A stretch of 64,000 nucleotides of DNA from an uncultured Acidobacteriota bacterium (GTDB lineage Bacteria > Acidobacteriota > JAQAZP01), in the NCBI GenBank assembly GCA_963836075.1, contig CAWIIB010000001.1, forward strand, positions 672,001 through 736,000. Reading direction: 5' to 3'. The notes beneath the pieces were generated by a model. That model saw nothing but the letters and a program-made list of their open reading frames with translations, searched no databases and had not been told where the DNA came from. The translations under genes were made by a program, and so were the position numbers. The first letter of the stretch is position 1. Every line of letters starts with the position of its first letter. Positions 50,549 through 58,264 of the stretch are shown in pieces.

Positions 50549-51283
50549 TTACGCCGGATTGACTCCCGGTTCCGCCGTACCCCTTCCCGCCGTGACTTCG
50601 GCGTCGGACGGGCGGACATAGACAGCGGTGAGATCCGCCGGGTCCCCGGTCCCCTCTTCCGACCGGAGCGTCTCCAGCCCGATGCGGGCCACCTGGGGGG
50701 CGATGAAACGGTCGGCCCCGGAGGTGCGGCCGGCAATCCCGGCCTGGGCCTCCCGCCCCCCCGGGAGACTGTCCGGCGGATCACCGCTCCACCAGACCTC
50801 CCGGTCTCCGGCCCCCTCGGCCACTTGGGCCAGCAGGGCCGCCGGGAGCTGCACCACCGGTTCCACCAGGGTCCGGGAGACAAATCCCTGCCCACCGGTT
50901 TCGTAGAGCGCGCCGTAAAACTCGCCGCGTCCAGCCTCCAGCAGCGGACAGACCAGGCCGTCCGGCACCCCGGCCCGCAGGGCCGAGGCCTCCAGCGTGG
51001 GGACGCCCACCGCGGGAAGCCCGGCGGCCAGGGCGATCCCCTGGACCATGGAGATACCGATGCGCACCCCGGTGAACGAACCGGGCCCGCAGGCCACGGC
51101 CAGCCCCTGGAGCTGTTCGGGCCGCAGCGACAGCTGCTCCAGCAACCAGTGGATCGCGGGAAGCAGCCGCCGGGAATACGATTCCGGCGACAGCAGGCTC
51201 ACCGAAGCCACCAGGCCGCGGTCAGCGTCGTACAGCGCGATGCTGCCATGGTAGGTTGTGGTGTCCACTCCGAGCACCATCAT
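50549..51283 (-). CDS. tsaB: tRNA threonylcarbamoyladenosine biosynthesis protein TsaB
   Basis: LGVDTT, GPGSFTGVRIG, VPTLEA, YVRPSDAE. Confidence 0.9.
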   Translation of the reverse strand: MMVLGVDTTTYHGSIALYDADRGLVASVSLLSPESYSRRLLPAIHWLLEQLSLRPEQLQGLAVACGPGSFTGVRIGISMVQGIALAAGLPAVGVPTLEASALRAGVPDGLVCPLLEAGRGEFYGALYETGGQGFVSRTLVEPVVQLPAALLAQVAEGAGDREVWWSGDPPDSLPGGREAQAGIAGRTSGADRFIAPQVARIGLETLRSEEGTGDPADLTAVYVRPSDAEVTAGRGTAEPGVNPA

Positions 51284-51422
51284 TCCCCGGCACCCCTTCC
51301 CCGCCCGGACGGTCGGAAACTCCGGCCCGGCCGGCTGGTCGTCATTTTTCAGCCAGAATGAATATGATACACTCCACCACGTTTCCATTGCTACTTTCGC
51401 ACACGCCCGGATCGGCGGCCAG

Positions 51423-54098
51423 ATGACCAAAAGCGACAAAACAACCCCGGTAATGCGGCAGTTCCTGGAGATCAAGGCGCAGCACAAGGACGCCATCCTC
51501 TTCTTCCGCATGGGTGACTTTTACGAGATGTTCTACGAGGACGCGGTGGTGGCCTCGCGGGACATGGAGATAGCCCTGACCTCCCGCGACCGCAATAGCG
51601 ACAACCCGGTGCCGATGTGCGGCGTTCCCTTCCACGCCGCCGAGGGCTACATCGCCCGGCTGATCCGCAAGGGGCACCGGGTGGCCATCTGCGACCAGGT
51701 GGAGGACCCCCGGGCGGCCAAGGGGCTGGTGCGCCGGGCGGTCACCCGGGTGGTGACCCCGGGGACGGTGACCGACGCCGGCCTGCTGGAGGCCCGGGAG
51801 AACAACTTCATCTGCGGCGTGGCGCTGACGTCCGGCGGCGGGGCGGGGGCGGCGTTCCTCGACGTCTCCACCGGCCGCTTCCTGCTGGCCGAGTCGGAGG
51901 AGGAGGAGCCGCTGGAGTTCCTGCGCCGCGAGCTGGCCCGCTACCGGCCGCGGGAGCTGGTGCACGCGGCCCCCGCGGAACCGCCCTCCCCGGCGGACCA
52001 GGAACTGAAGCAGATGCTGGACAACGCCGTGCCGGAAAACGGTGAGGACCAGCCGCTGTTCAGCCCGTGGCCGCCCTGGTCCTTTGGCGAGGAATCGGCC
52101 CGGCGCGCGCTCACCGACCAGCTGGGGGTGGCCACCCTGGACGGCTACGGCTGCCAGGACCGCACGCTGGCGGTGCGGGCCGCCGGCGGGTTGCTGCACT
52201 ACCTCCAGGAGACCCAGGGGGCGGCGCTAAACCACATCGACTCGCTCACCTGGTGCGCCACCGGCCGCTACATGACCCTCGACCCGGCCACGGTGAAAAA
52301 CCTCGAACTGGTGAACAGCATGGAGGGCGGCCGGGAGGGATCGCTGATCTCGGCGCTGGACCTGACCTTCACCGGCATGGGCGGCCGCAAGCTGCGCGAC
52401 TGGTTTCTCCGCCCGCTGCTGGACGCCGACGAGATCCGCCGCCGCCAGGAGGGGGTGGAGGAACTGCTGTCCGATGTCACCGCCCGCAGCCGGCTCAGCG
52501 ACCGGCTGAAACAGATCTTCGACCTGGAGCGCCTGCTGGGCCGGGTGGTGCTGGCCACCGCCGGGCCGCGGGACATGGTGGCGCTGAAGAGCTCCATCGC
52601 CCTGCTCCCCGGCCTGCGCGAGGAGCTGGGCCGCCTCTCCACCCCGGTGATGGACGGGCTGCACCAGGGACTGGACCTGCTGGATGATGTGCACGACCTG
52701 CTGGAACGGGCGATCAACCCCGAACCACCGGCCACCATCCGCGACCCCGGACTGATCCGCGACGGGTACAGCCCCGAACTGGACCAGTTGCGCACGGTGG
52801 CCCGGGAGGGCAAGCAGACCATCGCCGGCATCGAGGCCCGGGAGCGGACACGCACCGGCATCGCCACACTCAAGGTGAAGTACAACCGGGTCTTCGGCTA
52901 TTTCATCGAGATCTCCAAGGCCAACCTGGCCGGCGGGGTGCCCGAGGACTACGAACGGAAACAGACCATGGTGGGCGCGGAACGCTTCATCACCCCGGAG
53001 CTGAAAGAATACGAAGAGCGGGTGGTGGGCGCCGAGGAGCGGATCAGCGACCTGGAGCAGCAGCTGTTTGCCGAGGTGCGGCAGCTGACCGCCGACCAGG
53101 CGGGGCGGATCAAGGGCTCCGCCGACCGGGTGGCCACCCTCGACGTGCTGCTCTGCCTGGCCGAAGCCGCCGCCAGCCACCGCTACTGCCGGCCGCAGAT
53201 CACCGCCGGGAAGCGGCTGAGCATCTCCGCCGGCCGCCACCCGGTGATCGAACAGCTCTCCCCCACCGGCGAACGCTTCGTCCCCAACGACGTGCTGCTG
53301 GACGATGCCGAGAACCAGATCCTGATCATCACCGGGCCGAACATGGGCGGCAAGTCGACCTACCTGCGGCAGGTGGCCCTGATCACCCTGATGGCCCACA
53401 CCGGCTCCTTTGTGCCGGCGGCGGCGGCGGAAATTCCCCTGGTGGACCGCATCTTCACCCGGGTGGGGGCCAGCGACTCCCTGGTCCGCGGCCACTCCAC
53501 CTTCATGGTGGAGATGATCGAGACGGCCAACATCCTCAACAACGCCACCCCGCGCAGCCTGGTGATCCTCGATGAGGTGGGCCGGGGCACCAGCACCTTC
53601 GACGGGGTGAGCATCGCCTGGGCGGTGGTGGAGCACCTGCACAACTCGGAACGGGTGGCCGCCAAATCCCTCTTCGCCACCCACTTCTACGAGCTGACCG
53701 AGCTGGCCGTCACCCTGCCCCGGGTGCGCAACTTCAACATCTCGGTCAAGGAGTGGAACGACGAGATCATTTTTCTCCGCGAGGTGGTGGAGGGCGCGGC
53801 GGACCGCAGCTACGGTGTCCAGGTGGCCCGTCTGGCCGGGCTGCCGCCCCGGGTGCTGAAGCGGGCCCGGGAGATCCTGGCCAACCTGGAAGCCAGCGCC
53901 TTTGATCGCCGGGGGATGCCCCGGCTGGCCGGCGAGGGGGGGGACGGGGAACCTGCGGCCGCGGATACCGATCAGATGCGCCTCTTCACCCCCGGAGAGG
54001 ACCCCCTGCTGGACGAGATCCGCCTGCTGGAGCTGGAACAGATGACGCCCATGGAGGCGCTGAACTACCTCGCCGATCTGCAGAGAAAACTGAAATAG
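51423..54098 (+). CDS. mutS: DNA mismatch repair protein MutS
   Basis: FRMGDFYEMF, ITGPNMGGKST, STFMVEM, DEVGRGTST, SYGVQVARLAG. Confidence 0.97.
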   Translation: MTKSDKTTPVMRQFLEIKAQHKDAILFFRMGDFYEMFYEDAVVASRDMEIALTSRDRNSDNPVPMCGVPFHAAEGYIARLIRKGHRVAICDQVEDPRAAKGLVRRAVTRVVTPGTVTDAGLLEARENNFICGVALTSGGGAGAAFLDVSTGRFLLAESEEEEPLEFLRRELARYRPRELVHAAPAEPPSPADQELKQMLDNAVPENGEDQPLFSPWPPWSFGEESARRALTDQLGVATLDGYGCQDRTLAVRAAGGLLHYLQETQGAALNHIDSLTWCATGRYMTLDPATVKNLELVNSMEGGREGSLISALDLTFTGMGGRKLRDWFLRPLLDADEIRRRQEGVEELLSDVTARSRLSDRLKQIFDLERLLGRVVLATAGPRDMVALKSSIALLPGLREELGRLSTPVMDGLHQGLDLLDDVHDLLERAINPEPPATIRDPGLIRDGYSPELDQLRTVAREGKQTIAGIEARERTRTGIATLKVKYNRVFGYFIEISKANLAGGVPEDYERKQTMVGAERFITPELKEYEERVVGAEERISDLEQQLFAEVRQLTADQAGRIKGSADRVATLDVLLCLAEAAASHRYCRPQITAGKRLSISAGRHPVIEQLSPTGERFVPNDVLLDDAENQILIITGPNMGGKSTYLRQVALITLMAHTGSFVPAAAAEIPLVDRIFTRVGASDSLVRGHSTFMVEMIETANILNNATPRSLVILDEVGRGTSTFDGVSIAWAVVEHLHNSERVAAKSLFATHFYELTELAVTLPRVRNFNISVKEWNDEIIFLREVVEGAADRSYGVQVARLAGLPPRVLKRAREILANLEASAFDRRGMPRLAGEGGDGEPAAADTDQMRLFTPGEDPLLDEIRLLELEQMTPMEALNYLADLQRKLK

Positions 54099-54115
54099 AT
54101 CCAAAAAAAAATAAC

Positions 54116-54144
54116 TTGACAGAATTGTAATGCCGCCCTATGGT
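54116..54144 (+). promoter_or_regulatory. sigma70-type promoter with UP-like A tract
   Basis: TTGACA-N17-TATGGT preceded by A9 (54103-54111). Confidence 0.7.
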
Positions 54145-54205
54145 TAGGACAGAAACCGGGTCCGCGCAACGGGCGGACTCCTGCTCTTGTCTCTCGAGTC
54201 CAGCA

Positions 54206-55096
54206 ATGACACTGGAAGAACTGCAGCAGCTACGGCAGCAAGGCATTGATTGCGGACGGCAAGGTCTGTACGAAGACGCCCTGCTCAACCTCTACCGGGC
54301 CTTCAACGGGTCCGAGGACCATCCCGATTTCCAGGTCAAGGCGGCTCTCGATCTCGGCGTGCTCTACCGCATGCTGGAGAAATACACCGCGGCCGCCGAG
54401 ATGCTGGAGATCGTCGAGCAGAACAGCTCGTCACAGAGCGTCCCGCGGTTCACCGCCTACCTCGAGCGGGCCATCATCGGCTACCGCAAGAAGGATCTGG
54501 GCGGCGCCGACCAGGCCCTGGCCATGGCCGAAGAGGTGCTGGAGCAGAACGAGATGGGCCGGCTGATCGTCTATTTCCTGGTCACCCGGGCCCTGGTGGA
54601 GATGGAACGGAAGGAATATCAGCGGGGGTTGGAAATCCTCCAGCAGTCGCTGACCTTCGTGGAACTGTTCAAGAGCCGGGACCTGCGCTGCACCGTGCTC
54701 TCCAACCTCGGCCACTGCCACCTGCATCTGGGCCAGACCGCCGAAGCGCGGGAGCAGTTGCTGGAGAGCCTCTCCATCTCCCGGGAGACGGGCAACGAGC
54801 GGCGCACAGCAGAAGTCTGCAGCTGCCTGGCCCTCACCGCGCTGAAGGACGACGACCTGCCGTCGGCCAAGGAGTATGCCGCCGAGTCGTTCCGCATCTC
54901 CTACGAGCAGAAATACCGCGATATCATCCGTGACCTCTGTTACCAGATCGGCCGCTACTACCGCAATCACGGCGAGGAATCCATCGCCGAGGTCTTTTTC
55001 GAAAAAGCGGTCAATGCCGACGGCCGGCTGACCACCGACTACCTGAAACTGCTCGATACGGACCGCATGGCCTCCGGCGAGGGTATGCACGACTGA
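54206..55096 (+). CDS. tetratricopeptide repeat protein
   Basis: Repeated TPR helices (LSNLGHCHLHLGQTAEA; YQIGRYY...A..FFEKA); the track start at 54140 falls inside the -10 box. Confidence 0.8.
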   Translation: MTLEELQQLRQQGIDCGRQGLYEDALLNLYRAFNGSEDHPDFQVKAALDLGVLYRMLEKYTAAAEMLEIVEQNSSSQSVPRFTAYLERAIIGYRKKDLGGADQALAMAEEVLEQNEMGRLIVYFLVTRALVEMERKEYQRGLEILQQSLTFVELFKSRDLRCTVLSNLGHCHLHLGQTAEAREQLLESLSISRETGNERRTAEVCSCLALTALKDDDLPSAKEYAAESFRISYEQKYRDIIRDLCYQIGRYYRNHGEESIAEVFFEKAVNADGRLTTDYLKLLDTDRMASGEGMHD

Positions 55097-55119
55097 AGAC
55101 GACAACAAAGGAAAAGATC

Positions 55120-55899
55120 ATGAACATCTCACTCTTCAAACGGTTGGCGGTTCCGCTGCTCCTGCTGCCGTTGATGGCCCTCTGGGTCCCTGGTGCCGGG
55201 GCCAACGTCATCGAGGACGGTGACGGCAGGATGTGGCAGGCGACCTACGCCCGCAACGGGGCCCACTTCCAGGTGCGCGTCGAAGTGACCCAGGGGGCCG
55301 AACCGGCCTTCGCCTTCTGGGCCACCAGCGGCGCCACCAACAGCATCGATCCTTTCCTGTTCACCGACGGGAGCCAGGTCTGGGTGGTCTGGAGCCAGGA
55401 GCGGCTGTCCATCGGCGGCACCTACGACATCTTCCTCCGCCAGATCTATCTCGACGGCACCGTGGACGAGCCGGCAAGCCAGGTGACCAAGGCCAACGAT
55501 GCCGCCATCAGCGACCGGACCCCCTGCGGCGCGGTCTGTCCCCTGGGGTTCCACGTGGCCTTCAAGCGTGAGACCAGCACGCCGGCGAGACTGGCCAAGA
55601 GCATCTGCTACCTGAACAACATCCCGGGGGATGGTTCCAGCACCGGGCTCTGGATCGACGCCGAGATGGAGTGCATCCCGATCATCGAGGACCACGACGG
55701 CACCGAGCCGACGCTGCTGCTGGGCAACGGGGACGACGGTTCGCCCACCATGGTGGTCTTCAAGGACTGGATCACCGTACACGTCCTGGGCGAAGGCAGC
55801 AAAAAGAAGTCGAGCTGCGCCATCTGGGAGCGGGTGCTCAACTCCAGCGACCCCAACCCCTGGGAGAAGGTGCTGGTGCACCTGCCGTTGAACCCCTAG
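55120..55899 (+). CDS. secreted hypothetical protein with SDPNPWE near the C-terminus
   Basis: RBS AAGGA, signal peptide MNISLFKRLAVPLLLLPLMALWVPGAGA, beta-rich, several Cys. Confidence 0.8.
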   Translation: MNISLFKRLAVPLLLLPLMALWVPGAGANVIEDGDGRMWQATYARNGAHFQVRVEVTQGAEPAFAFWATSGATNSIDPFLFTDGSQVWVVWSQERLSIGGTYDIFLRQIYLDGTVDEPASQVTKANDAAISDRTPCGAVCPLGFHVAFKRETSTPARLAKSICYLNNIPGDGSSTGLWIDAEMECIPIIEDHDGTEPTLLLGNGDDGSPTMVVFKDWITVHVLGEGSKKKSSCAIWERVLNSSDPNPWEKVLVHLPLNP

Positions 55900-55901
55900 G
55901 G

Positions 55902-55958
55902 TGGCCGCCGGTCCCGGGGGGCGCTGCCCCCCACCGGCCATGGAGGGTCATTTTTTTT
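55902..55958 (+). terminator. terminator-like hairpin
   Basis: GCCGGT-CCC-GGGGGGC-GCT-GCCCCCC-ACCGGC, with a T8 run at 55951-55958. Confidence 0.5.
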
Positions 55959-55965
55959 GACTGTG

Positions 55966-56079
55966 ATGTTTACTTATATGTACGTTAACACGGAACAGGA
56001 AAGACCTCCCGGCCGACCCCTGCGCAGCACCAGCGACCCGAACCCCTGGGAAGAGGCCTCGATCACCTTCAGCCGATGA
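55966..56079 (+). CDS. candidate small ORF (33-37 aa) carrying a second SDPNPWE
   Basis: Manual translation MFTYMYVNTEQERPPGRPLRSTSDPNPWEEASITFSR; motif matches the upstream protein with synonymous codon differences; RBS weak. Confidence 0.5.
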   Translation: MFTYMYVNTEQERPPGRPLRSTSDPNPWEEASITFSR

Positions 56080-58264
56080 TCTGCAGATCAGGTGAAAATT
56101 CCGCCAGCAGCTCCTTTTCCTCTCCCGAATCGAAGCGGATCCGGATCCGGCCCCCGGCAGTGTCCAGCACCCGGCCCGGGCCCAGGCGGGGGTGCGAGAC
56201 CAGGTCCCCGGCCACCGGCGCCCGGCTGCCGGGCTCCTTGTGGTCCGGCGGGCGCCCGTCACCGTCGAGGAAGGACCCCACAGTCCTGCCGGCCTCGGGC
56301 AACGGCCCGCTGCTCTCGATCAGCTCCCGGGGCAGGCGGTCGATGAAACGGCTGGGCCAGGGGGCAGCCCCGCGGCGGGCAACGGTGAGCATGTGGGTCA
56401 TCAGCAGGTGCCGCCGGGCCCTGGTCATGGCGACGAAGAGCAATCGCCGCTCCTCCTCGAACTCCGGCGTGCCCTCGTCCTTGTTGGCCAGCGGCAGCAG
56501 CCCCTCGTTGAGGCCGATGATGAACACCGCGTCGAACTCCAGGCCCTTGGCCGCGTGGATGGTCATCAGGTTCAGCGCTCGCCCCGGGGGCCCCAGGTCG
56601 TCCCTGCCGGTTCCCATGCTCAACGAGACCTCGGACAGAAAGGCCGACCAGGCGTCCCAGGGCTCCAGCCCCTCCTGGTCGGCGGCCCGGCCGCGGATCT
56701 CCAGGATCCGCTGCCACAGTTCCTCCCCCGCCGCGGTGTGCACCCCGATCTCCTGCTCCCGGAAACCGCTGCGCTCCACCGCCAGGTCGAATATTTCCGC
56801 CGGTGAGCGGACCATCAGTTCGGCGCCCAGCTCCTCCAGGGCGGCGGCAAAGAGCGAGGCCCGCTCCCGGGTCCGCCGGGGCAGGTCGTCCAGGTCGTCC
56901 AGCGAGAGCAGCAGCTGGCCCAGGGTCAGGCCGTGACCTTCCGCCGCCTGCCGCAGACTGCCCAGCATCAGCGGGGTCAGCTTCCATGCCGGCAGGGTCG
57001 CGGCCGCGCAGAGGCTCAGCTGGTCGTCCGGGTTGGTCAGGGCCTTGAACAGCGCCATCAGCTTGCGCACCGGGGGCAGGTGGAGGAGGTTCTTCGGGGC
57101 CACCACCCGCAGCGGCACGCCGTCCCGGCGCAGCGCCGCCTCCACCCGGGGGGCCTGGGCGTTGACCCGGTAGAGTACGGCCATGGAACCGAAGGGGATC
57201 GATTCCTCACTGTTCAGCCGCCGGGCTTCCCGGGACACCAGGTCGGCCTGGTCCCGCTCGTCGTCACAGGCGATGAGCCGCAGCGGCGGCCCGGCATCGT
57301 TCTCGGTCCAGGGGGGCCGGGGCGCTGCCTGGGCCAGTTCCTCCGGGTCGGCCAGTACCGCGGCCGCCTGCAGGATGGTGGAGCTGGAGCGGTAGTGCTG
57401 CACCAGGGAGCAGGTCCGCGACCCGGGGTATTCCTGGTGGAAGCGGCGGAAGATCTCCGGACAGGCGCCGCGCCAGGTGTAGATGCTCTGGTTGGGGTCC
57501 CCCACCACGTAGAGGTTTTTCTGCGGCCCCAGCAGACCCTTGAGCAGCAGATACTGCAGGCGGTCGGTGTCCTGGAACTCGTCCACCAGGATGTGGTCGA
57601 ACCGCTGCCCCAGCCGCTGCCGCACCTCGGCATGGTCGATGAGCATGCGCAGCGGCAAAAGGATCAGGTCGTCAAAGTCGAGGGCGTTGGCCGAGGCCAG
57701 CCGCTGCTGGTAGAGCCGGTGCAGTTCCCGCTCCAGTGAGCCTGCCTCTGTTTCGGGCGCCCCCACACAGCCGCTCTGCTTCAGTTGCACGATGTTGCGC
57801 AGCAGCTCCGCCGGCCGCGGACGCCCGCCGTCCTGATCCAGCGCGGCGGCCAGCTCGCCGATCAGGGCCTGCCGCTCGGACTCGTCGTAGATGGTGAACC
57901 CCCGGCGGTAGCCGTACTGCTCCAGCGGCAGCTCCTCGTTGAGCAGCCGGCGGCAGACCGAGTGGAAGGTGCCGAAAAAGCGGATCGAGCCGGCCACTCC
58001 GGGCCCCAGCAACTGGAGGACCCGCTCTCTCATCTCCCTGGCCGCACGGTTGGTGAAGGTCAGTACCAGCAGACGGTCCGGACGGGCACGGCCGGTTTCC
58101 AGCAGCCAGGCCAGCCGCCGGGTGAGCACCCGGGTCTTGCCGCTGCCCACCGCCGCCTCCACCAGCACCGGTCCCTCACCGGCCAGCACCGCCTCCCGCT
58201 GCAGCGGGTTGAGACCTTCCAGCGCCTGCGGTTCGTTCTGCTCTTCTGTTCCCTGCTCGTTCAT
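56069..58264 (-). CDS. UvrD/PcrA-family ATP-dependent DNA helicase
   Basis: GSGKT, TFTNRAA.EM, GTFH, VDEFQD, VGDPNQSIY.WRGA, TIHAAKGLEF, EERRLLFVAMTRA, C-terminal Tudor-like VSHPRLG.G. Confidence 0.92.
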   Translation of the reverse strand: MNEQGTEEQNEPQALEGLNPLQREAVLAGEGPVLVEAAVGSGKTRVLTRRLAWLLETGRARPDRLLVLTFTNRAAREMRERVLQLLGPGVAGSIRFFGTFHSVCRRLLNEELPLEQYGYRRGFTIYDESERQALIGELAAALDQDGGRPRPAELLRNIVQLKQSGCVGAPETEAGSLERELHRLYQQRLASANALDFDDLILLPLRMLIDHAEVRQRLGQRFDHILVDEFQDTDRLQYLLLKGLLGPQKNLYVVGDPNQSIYTWRGACPEIFRRFHQEYPGSRTCSLVQHYRSSSTILQAAAVLADPEELAQAAPRPPWTENDAGPPLRLIACDDERDQADLVSREARRLNSEESIPFGSMAVLYRVNAQAPRVEAALRRDGVPLRVVAPKNLLHLPPVRKLMALFKALTNPDDQLSLCAAATLPAWKLTPLMLGSLRQAAEGHGLTLGQLLLSLDDLDDLPRRTRERASLFAAALEELGAELMVRSPAEIFDLAVERSGFREQEIGVHTAAGEELWQRILEIRGRAADQEGLEPWDAWSAFLSEVSLSMGTGRDDLGPPGRALNLMTIHAAKGLEFDAVFIIGLNEGLLPLANKDEGTPEFEEERRLLFVAMTRARRHLLMTHMLTVARRGAAPWPSRFIDRLPRELIESSGPLPEAGRTVGSFLDGDGRPPDHKEPGSRAPVAGDLVSHPRLGPGRVLDTAGGRIRIRFDSGEEKELLAEFSPDLQIIG

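Follow-up and report, generated by a model that had tools for sequence, protein, structure and literature searches.

Why is one seven-residue motif encoded twice between mutS and uvrD? We addressed this question in a 64,000-nt stretch of DNA from an uncultured Acidobacteriota bacterium (positions 672001-736000 of contig C1 in genome G000, which is 6.2 Mb long with 64% G+C), referred to here as the window. Between the two genes lie a gene for a tetratricopeptide repeat (TPR) protein, a gene for an exported partner protein and a small open reading frame (ORF), and the motif S-D-P-N-P-W-E is found both in the C-terminal tail of the partner and inside the small ORF. We tentatively favour reading this as a three-part motif-and-receptor module, in which the TPR protein would be the receptor for the motif and the small peptide a cytoplasmic mimic. 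An initial annotation of the window had proposed a TPR receptor with an exported and a cytoplasmic form of its ligand, and every element that it listed was found in its place.

Two copies of one motif

Copy 1 lies at 55846-55866, in the C-terminal tail of the exported partner, and copy 2 at 56032-56052, inside the small ORF, both on the plus strand. Direct comparison showed that the copies differ at two third codon positions and nowhere else, both differences being synonymous, and that the motif is followed by 10 residues before the C-terminus in the first protein and by 8 in the second, all of which agreed with what had been annotated. The underlying direct repeat was longer than previously described, with 83% identity over 36 nt and a spacing of 186 nt. 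Its best 21-nt match (20/21) exceeded the maximum of 17/21 reached in 300 shuffles of the intergenic stretch, and a shared five-residue word arose in 339 of 200000 shuffles. DPNPW occurs three times in the six-frame translation of the 6.2-Mb genome, two of these being the copies at the locus. The motif repeat is not a chance match.

We compared the locus with its syntenic counterparts in two relatives of the same genus (L002 in genome G001, L003 in genome G002) and on a more distant metagenome contig (L009). Among the matches listed, contig scans returned the two same-genus genomes from the genome collection, and L009 and a copy of the G002 locus from the metagenomes; L008 and L010 carry the same sequence as the G002 locus. 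Comparison of the small ORF covered three lineages (G000, G002, L009) together with variant metagenome contigs. The loci of proteins P0004, P0006, P0007 and P0008 and of the TPR orthologues P0155 and P0157-P0163 lie outside the locus comparison.

The C-terminal S-D-P-N-P-W-E-K was found to be the most conserved block of the partner, with D244, P245, P247, W248 and E249 invariant among eight orthologues (alignment A3). The block takes the form [SG]-D-P-[NT]-P-W-E-[KR] in orthologues, G-D-x-x-P-W/F in paralogues and G-[DG]-x-x-P-W in more distant members. Around copy 2, 22 nt are identical between G000 and G002 and the flanks have diverged; copy 1 differs at two synonymous sites where copy 2 is identical in the two genomes. 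In both G000 and G002, the codons CCG and GAA of copy 2 stand opposite CCC and GAG in copy 1; copy 2 therefore has its own inherited lineage and has not been refreshed by conversion from copy 1. Between G000 and L009, copy 2 keeps 18 of 21 bases, and the three differences are all at third codon positions (one changing D to E, two synonymous). Across the small ORFs the motif thus reads S-[DE]-P-N-P-W-E.

The TPR and partner genes are a conserved pair

The candidate motif receptor, encoded at 54206-55096 on the plus strand, has 296 aa and no signal peptide. Its Pfam matches were to TPR families alone (TPR_12, E 1.5e-16), in agreement with its earlier description as a TPR-only protein, and no DNA-binding Pfam family was found in it. 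The partner gene (55120-55899, plus strand) begins 23 nt past the TPR stop with an AGGA ribosome-binding site ahead. It encodes the 259-aa signal-peptide protein that had been annotated, ending ...NSSDPNPWEKVLVHLPLNP; a signal-like N-terminal helix (residues 4-21) is followed by an A-G-A|N site.

The order mutS-TPR-partner-uvrD was found at all four syntenic loci (G000, G001, G002, L009). Conservation is far higher in the TPR protein, whose orthologues are 73-91% identical, than in the partner, whose family members are 44-59% identical outside the motif; on the G001 contig the TPR protein is 81% and the partner 58% identical. Adjacent TPR and partner genes recur in paralogous cassettes, two in G001 (L006 and L005) and one each in G000 (L028) and G002 (L027). 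Their partner tails differ, with DPDPF, DTSPWF or GNEPWS at the place of the motif: L006 ends GGDPDPFTKFDKHLLPINTR, L005 ends GGGNEPWSSCQ, and L028 and L027 both end SGDTSPWFQVQ. A second motif copy was found in none of these paralogous cassettes. The intact cassette L028 (C8:216987-218680) encodes a 291-aa TPR protein and a 242-aa partner, followed by an unannotated 290-aa ORF. A further G000 cassette, at C9:279300-280950 (L034, L038), is decayed: its TPR gene was recovered in 3-4 tblastn pieces and its partner contains TGA stops, with the end ...DGSDPDPWMALIKHRLPINLR still kept. One partner paralogue has no TPR neighbour (L021, L022). The orphan L021 (G000:C9:1303084-1303780) ends GGDTSPWSVCH and adjoins an isochorismatase-family gene, the nearest type-D-like TPR gene being about 550 kb away (C9:1857285-1858181).

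The co-occurrence that the initial proposal implied was therefore borne out, the TPR and exported-protein genes being a conserved, co-duplicated pair. Judged by their genomic arrangement, in which they are adjacent, duplicate together and decay as a unit, the two genes are coupled and form a functional pair.

A small ORF that carries the motif

The unannotated small ORF proposed to carry copy 2 is present at 55978-56079 on the plus strand, with an ATG start and 33 aa (MYVNTEQERPPGRPLRSTSDPNPWEEASITFSR), ending ...STSDPNPWEEASITFSR; from an alternative TTG start it spans 55957-56079 and 40 aa. It overlaps the 3' end of the convergent uvrD by 11 nt. Both the terminator-like hairpin and the AT-rich patch that had been noted ahead of it were found. 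Folding predicted an intrinsic terminator on the plus strand (hairpin 55889-55950, T8 55951-55958), and the hairpin ends just ahead of the U-run in G000, G002 and L009 (z -0.3, -2.0 and -4.2). In the alignment, a conserved AT-rich patch at 55947-55990 contains the block ATGTAYGTTA, and the 40 nt around the ATG are 25% G+C in G000 and 25-30% in the three lineages.

Counterparts of the small ORF were found in G002 (L003:2069-2215, 48 aa, MYVITISTTISPAHRPLRPPGLHYHTISDPNPWESIAPSGSVDDLQVG, with the same sequence in L008 and L010) and in L009 (L009:4849-4953, 34 aa, MYVMGHAERPSDAPAIRSEPNPWETTSVRQFEVR). Its conservation, on which the initial proposal likewise hinged, held in three of the four syntenic lineages (G000, G002, L009), which keep a MYV start and the in-frame motif, as do variant metagenome contigs. 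G001 lacks the entire insert of about 190 nt that includes the small ORF. Since the L009 partner is the most divergent of the four (48% identical to that of G000), L009 is probably the outgroup; in that case the small ORF probably predates the genus and was lost in G001.

Common to the three intergenic regions are the terminator, the T-run, ATGTAYGTTA, a short GAAMGACCT block and the motif, and the rest is unalignable. ATG and motif are separated by 54 nt in G000, 81 nt in G002 and 51 nt in L009, all multiples of 3 and stop-free. In the variant contigs (runs X1 and X4) the interval is 69 nt, since the inserted letters sum to 15 in the difference rows listed. Ahead of the motif, length thus changes by +27, +15 and -3 nt; the changes downstream of it, +2 and -11 nt, are not divisible by 3. 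As a rough guide, three in-frame length changes would be expected about once in 27 cases, and three changes would all hit 7 of 21 sites with a probability of about 0.026. Just ahead of the motif, R-P-P-G is identical in G000 and G002, with codons that differ throughout. Copy 2 itself was unchanged in the variant contigs among the 40 difference rows listed (there being 18 further rows). By these comparisons, the small ORF evolves in a coding-like way. Read by eye, it has no hydrophobic segment in any of the three lineages.

We also looked for structure in the nucleic acid. Plus-strand RNA of the small ORF is less folded than its shuffled versions (z +1.6), and an Rfam scan of 53900-56400 gave no match at E <= 1. 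On the minus strand (56032-56067), a hairpin right after the uvrD stop in G000 has the reverse complement of copy 2 as its 3' arm (z 0.1). This hairpin has a different register in G002 (z -3.25) and is absent in L009 (z 0.63), and it was rejected as a conserved element.

Modelled binding of the motif by the TPR protein

The model of the TPR protein (predicted local distance difference test score, pLDDT, 89.7) has 15 helices, all in the TPR array, and no other domain. The Foldseek ranking comprised LGN, consensus TPR proteins and Rap. The model is closest to peptide-bound Rap TPR domains, with a root-mean-square deviation (rmsd) of 2.7-3.0 A over about 270 residues at 12-14% identity; as the margin of Rap over other TPR superhelices is just 2-3 Z units, this points to a shared binding-competent shape and not to kinship. 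The alignment covers solely Rap residues ~94-369, leaving out the N-terminal three-helix output domain of Rap. By sequence, the TPR profile (alignment A8) matched 224 chains of the PDB at E <= 1. The best 60 of these were consensus TPR proteins, LGN, kinesin light chain, OGT and LapB; Rap, NprR, PlcR and PrgX were not among the best 60. PADLOC gave nothing but a generic TPR match (E 0.0059) and NCBIfam no match at its cut-off. The idea of a precursor of a ribosomally synthesised and post-translationally modified peptide (RiPP) was tried and rejected, the NCBIfam model for the cyclophane RiPP TPR protein scoring 23.1 bits against a cut-off of 1125 with no modifying enzyme at the locus.

We then modelled the TPR protein (alignment A8) together with the small peptide (alignment A6). 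The complex scored 0.81, 0.80 and 0.81 in three runs, compared with 0.02, 0.15 and 0.00 for the controls. In calibration, 58 of 80 solved complexes and 2 of 110 mismatched pairs attained this mark, counts that apply only roughly here since the alignments were our own. At least 64% of contacts are common to the runs, with a peptide pLDDT of 49-51. Confident contacts of the peptide involve residues 14-26 (PLRSTSDPNPWEE) and are centred on the shared motif. Those of the TPR protein line its concave face from residue 14 to residue 247 and include the near-invariant R55, Y123, N167, D239 and Q247. These models support binding, with the motif predicted to sit in the TPR groove. Of what had been expected from comparison with RRNPP receptors, placement of the motif in the groove (0.81 against 0.15 for the best control) and a fold closest to Rap were recovered, and an output domain of the Rap type was not.

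The exported partner

The partner was modelled with a pLDDT of 84.9 as an all-beta protein after the signal helix, with a beta-propeller-like body. Foldseek matched it to GH43 enzymes (E 1.6e-6 to 1e-4, template modelling score about 0.5, rmsd 6-8 A), with sialidases and TolB scoring below these. The motif region was modelled as coil and a three-residue strand (248-250), where pLDDT drops from 80 to 68. The protein falls below all Pfam and NCBIfam cut-offs (Glyco_hydro_43, E 0.0011, 18.8 bits vs 32.2; no NCBIfam match). Positions that are invariant or at least 90% conserved (alignment A9) are W39, W91, P247, A28, D33, T69, P78, G84, S92, G143, H145, Y164, W178 and W248. A PEP-CTERM or sortase-type C-terminal sorting signal was considered and rejected, as 10-13 residues follow the motif and contain no transmembrane stretch.

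Among 5.8 billion proteins, the partner query returned 8 proteins from 451 candidates; the TPR query returned 16 proteins among 5.8 billion sequences. In a first sample, 3 of 41 genomes matched the partner, all of one genus. A phylum-wide search (alignment A2) matched 11 of 401 genomes at E <= 0.001, strongly in G000-G002 alone. The other eight matches (E 4.8e-6 to 9.5e-4) lie inside open frames of 456-970 aa, and we read them as shared propeller repeats. The blade-like repeat of the partner recurs in many long multi-repeat proteins, and distant repeat relatives carry BNR_2 or BNR_4. In the ESM Atlas, matches were to unnamed clusters at 0.91 and, as a lead, to BNR_4 at 0.89.

In G002, the partner (L003:1480-1992) has lost residues ~135-228 in frame and is 170 aa long, with the signal peptide, the N-terminal half and the C-terminal motif retained. 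The TPR gene of the same locus has ATA in place of ATG as its start codon (L003:587-589), the remaining frame being intact. This form, with the ATA start and the shortened partner, is also found in L008 and L010. It is either a case of early cassette decay or a sign that signal and tail suffice.

Comparison with known peptide-TPR systems

The initial annotation had likened the TPR protein to RRNPP receptors. In that family the output domain is a helix-turn-helix (HTH) domain in PlcR, PrgX, NprR, Rgg and AimR and a three-helix bundle in Rap. No output domain is fused to the TPR array here, the model consisting of TPR helices only. In the available text of two sources, recognition of short peptides by TPRs underlies Rap-Phr and related quorum sensing, which is described for Bacillota and mobile elements (PMC10075063, PMC9765709). 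The first of these, in the same available text, gives a five-criterion signature: a propeptide of 10-100 aa that is exported, a receptor of about 250-500 aa with peptide-recognising TPRs, and neighbouring genes (PMC10075063). We found that the receptor has the length (296 aa) and the repeats (the TPR_12 match above, with peptide recognition modelled). The size of a propeptide is that of the small ORF (33, 48 and 34 aa) and not of the adjacent 259-aa partner, and export is predicted not for the small ORF but for the partner, with its signal-like helix. Nor are receptor and small ORF neighbours: the small ORF begins 881 nt past the TPR stop, and the two are separated by the 780-nt partner gene and a terminator. 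Because no single gene combines the three propeptide features and the output domain is missing, the module should not be classed as RRNPP, although it may partly function like RRNPP systems. Of the proposed likeness, the fold closest to peptide-bound Rap and the modelled placement of the motif in the groove stood; the propeptide, the adjacency and the output domain did not.

With Rap-Phr the locus shares a receptor of about 300 aa that comprises seven TPR-like helix pairs, a receptor gene followed by a gene for a Sec-exported product with a short conserved C-terminal motif, and several paralogous cassettes per genome with their own motif variants. It differs in having a folded 259-aa partner in place of a propeptide of about 40 aa, in its second, non-exported carrier of the motif, in its host, an acidobacterium, and in lacking the N-terminal three-helix output domain.

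Two further systems encode a short peptide twice. In pCF10 of Enterococcus, cCF10 from the chromosomal ccfA and iCF10 from the small ORF prgQ compete for one site on PrgX, according to the text available (PMC6540685). The likeness, as far as that text goes, is that two related peptides, one from a larger product and one from a small ORF, use one receptor pocket (PMC6540685). However, both pCF10 peptides are secreted and re-imported and PrgX has a DNA-binding domain, whereas at this locus the small peptide lacks an export signal and the core motif is identical, not merely related, in the two copies. In heterocyst-forming cyanobacteria, the available text describes RG(S/T)GR in the very small ORFs of PatS and PatX and in the much larger protein HetN, all acting on one target (PMC7761841). 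The present locus resembles them in coding one short motif within a small ORF as well as within a bigger protein. There the target, HetR, is a DNA-binding regulator, the genes are unclustered, and neither sequence nor fold indicates kinship with the present proteins.

Eukaryotic TPR receptors of short motifs (the C-degron receptor APPBP2, LGN/Pins, kinesin light chain) are alike in fold and binding mode only and belong to unrelated pathways. Class II TPR chaperones (LcrH/SycD) are cytoplasmic, are encoded beside an exported client and bind a short motif of the client before its export. In our proposal, too, a cytoplasmic TPR protein would be coded beside an exported client; LcrH and SycD, however, are smaller, at about 160 aa, and act on type III secretion substrates without Sec signals, and the TPR protein scored 16.3 bits against the SycD/LcrH family model TIGR02552, below its cut-off of 104.8. 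We found no published description of the module in full-text searches of the literature, in which DPNPW appeared only in unrelated papers, which is in keeping with the view that the system is undescribed.

Proposed function and alternative explanations

In the arrangement we tentatively favour, the TPR protein would be a cytoplasmic Rap-type superhelix without output domain whose groove recognises S-[DE]-P-N-P-W-E. This motif would be coded twice, in the flexible tail of the co-transcribed, Sec-exported, propeller-like partner and in a separate peptide of 33-48 aa. The TPR protein would bind the partner tail before export, acting as a dedicated escort, a retention factor or a sensor of the unexported precursor. 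The small peptide, having no export signal, would stay in the compartment of the TPR protein, where it could act as a mimic that competes for the groove and thereby sets the level of free TPR protein. We prefer an intracellular mechanism because a non-exported motif carrier shares the TPR compartment, the TPR protein has no output domain and the partner is folded and not a propeptide. We infer translation of the small ORF, binding in the cell, the compartment and the output. Of the idea of an exported form and a cytoplasmic mimic, the conserved pair, the conserved small ORF and the modelled placement of the motif in the groove were upheld, and membership of RRNPP was not.

Several results weigh against this arrangement. 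For the small ORF, they begin with its absence from G001, which indicates that cassettes lacking it can exist. Outside the motif, its residues diverge at roughly the rate of intergenic DNA and the frame of its C-terminal tail is not maintained, and the third-position periodicity suits one minus-strand frame equally well. It has no Shine-Dalgarno sequence and sits behind a strong terminator, and the promoter scan found no promoter for it. Gene callers did not call it, and its alignment (A7) against 5.8 billion proteins gave three word-sharing candidates, none at E <= 10. Among the 24 runs listed in the run search, none containing the stretch is recorded as RNA. For binding, conservation of the contact residues was not significant (25 of 42 invariant vs 122 of 240 others; 11 orthologues, one-sided Mann-Whitney p = 0.086), and the alignment of the small peptide used in the complex model has three rows only. 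Since TPR-peptide complexes are common among solved structures, the score may in part stem from such structures remembered by the model. A recognisable output domain, whether HTH or of the Rap type, is absent from the TPR model and its Pfam matches. Finally, with an exported partner and a TPR protein that lacks a signal peptide, binding would need either to precede export or to follow re-import.

It is unlikely that copy 2 is an untranslated leftover of a single duplication of the partner 3' end, the TPR/partner pair working without it. The 36-nt direct repeat at 186 nt fits such a relic, and so do the want of a ribosome-binding site and promoter, the absence of the ORF from G001, the fast change of the rest of the ORF with its unkept tail frame, and the paralogous cassettes with a single motif copy each. 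Yet between G000 and L009, whose partners are 48% identical and whose flanks are unalignable, ATGTAYGTTA and 18 of 21 motif bases were kept with all three changes at third positions; the four pre-motif lengths (51, 54, 69 and 81 nt) are all in frame and stop-free; and the CCG and GAA common to G000 and G002 give copy 2 a lineage of its own, with no conversion from copy 1. Conservation could also be owed to the nucleic acid, as a plus-strand promoter (TTGACT/TTGCAA-N18-TACGTT/TATGTT) of a transcript antisense to the uvrD 3' end or as a hairpin in the 3' untranslated region of uvrD. ATGTAYGTT can be read in all three lineages as a -10 box with a -35-like hexamer 18 nt ahead of it (a site that the promoter scan did not list), the minus-strand hairpin uses the reverse complement of the motif and is strongest in G002, and copy 2 is identical over 22 nt between G000 and G002 while copy 1 differs at two synonymous sites. 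We regard this explanation as very improbable: the hairpin is in another register in G000 and absent in L009, Rfam gave no match, the plus-strand RNA is less structured than shuffled versions, and the in-frame length changes and the restriction to third positions would be left unexplained.

A different objection is that TPR protein and motif never meet, DPNPW being a structural or sorting element of the propeller, the TPR protein a scaffold for something else and the complex an artefact. Part of the motif does form a short strand on the model (248-250), contact residues are not significantly enriched in conservation, the two proteins finish in different compartments, and by sequence the TPR profile matches generic TPR proteins of the PDB only (in the best 60 of 224 chains). 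We give this objection little weight, however, as the complex scored far above its controls and its contacts centre on the motif, as a motif of use only within the folded exported protein would hardly explain a non-exported peptide that retains nothing else, and as TPR and partner genes duplicate and decay together. If the two do meet, they might do so in cell-to-cell signalling like that of RRNPP systems, with a DPNPWE peptide cut from the exported tail, re-imported and bound by the TPR protein, and with the small ORF supplying an intracellular agonist or antagonist. The Sec-type signal of the partner, a motif in a tail modelled as coil and one short strand, several paralogous cassettes per genome with varied motifs as in Rap-Phr, a TPR fold closest to peptide-bound Rap, a complex model that passes, and the in-frame loss of residues ~135-228 (half of the propeller) in G002 with signal and tail kept would all suit signalling, for which the competition of two peptides for PrgX, as given in the available text, is a precedent (PMC6540685). 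We nevertheless consider it quite unlikely. The partner is a conserved folded domain of 230 aa and not a propeptide of 10-100 aa, a further conserved tail (L-P-x-N-P) follows the motif, an output domain of HTH or phosphatase type is missing from the receptor, the small ORF lacks an export signal and does not adjoin the receptor gene, and neither a processing protease nor a peptide importer is coded at the locus between mutS and uvrD. Acidobacteriota are, moreover, a two-membrane phylum, so that the signal would have to cross the outer membrane as well. It is equally doubtful that this is the first Rap-Phr-type peptide/TPR module outside Bacillota, in which a signal would be cut from the partner tail, the receptor would lack an output domain, the mimic would gate it from inside and each paralogue would have a private channel.

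Should the motif-and-receptor module with a cytoplasmic mimic be real, a Rap-like TPR protein and a motif-bearing exported protein would extend the logic of peptide-TPR recognition to another phylum and to a different architecture, with the motif on a folded carrier, no fused output domain and a second, cytoplasmic motif copy in the form of a 33-aa ORF. The small ORF would be a clean case of a conserved, unannotated micro-gene that is recognisable solely by its mimicry of a neighbour's motif, and such mimicry would give a search rule applicable elsewhere. With 8 partner and 16 TPR proteins in 5.8 billion the family is tiny, so any impact would be conceptual rather than broad.

Promoter and flanking genes

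The near-consensus promoter that had been noted ahead of the TPR gene was found again. A scan gave one sigma70-like site for the TPR/partner operon, TTGACA-17-TATGGT at 54116-54144 on the plus strand, against a shuffle mean of 0.3, and the core TTGACA-N17-TATnnT is invariant in all four aligned genomes (alignment A10). Within 54090-54205 of the window, three blocks are invariant in the four genomes: the promoter hexamers, TGTAAT between them, and TCTCGAG about 10 nt before the TPR start. These blocks at the 5' end of the operon could be an operator or a translation signal.

DNA datasets that contain the stretch are salt-marsh and marine-sediment metagenomes. The module is flanked downstream by the convergent uvrD (56069-58264, minus strand; Pfam UvrD-helicase, E 6.5e-69) and upstream by mutS (51258-54098, plus strand). 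The longest ORF of mutS begins about 55 codons before the conserved MTKSDKTTPVMRQF region (window positions 51258-51430). In L009, mutS has a similar upstream extension that is poorly conserved, and the true start of mutS is therefore probably internal.

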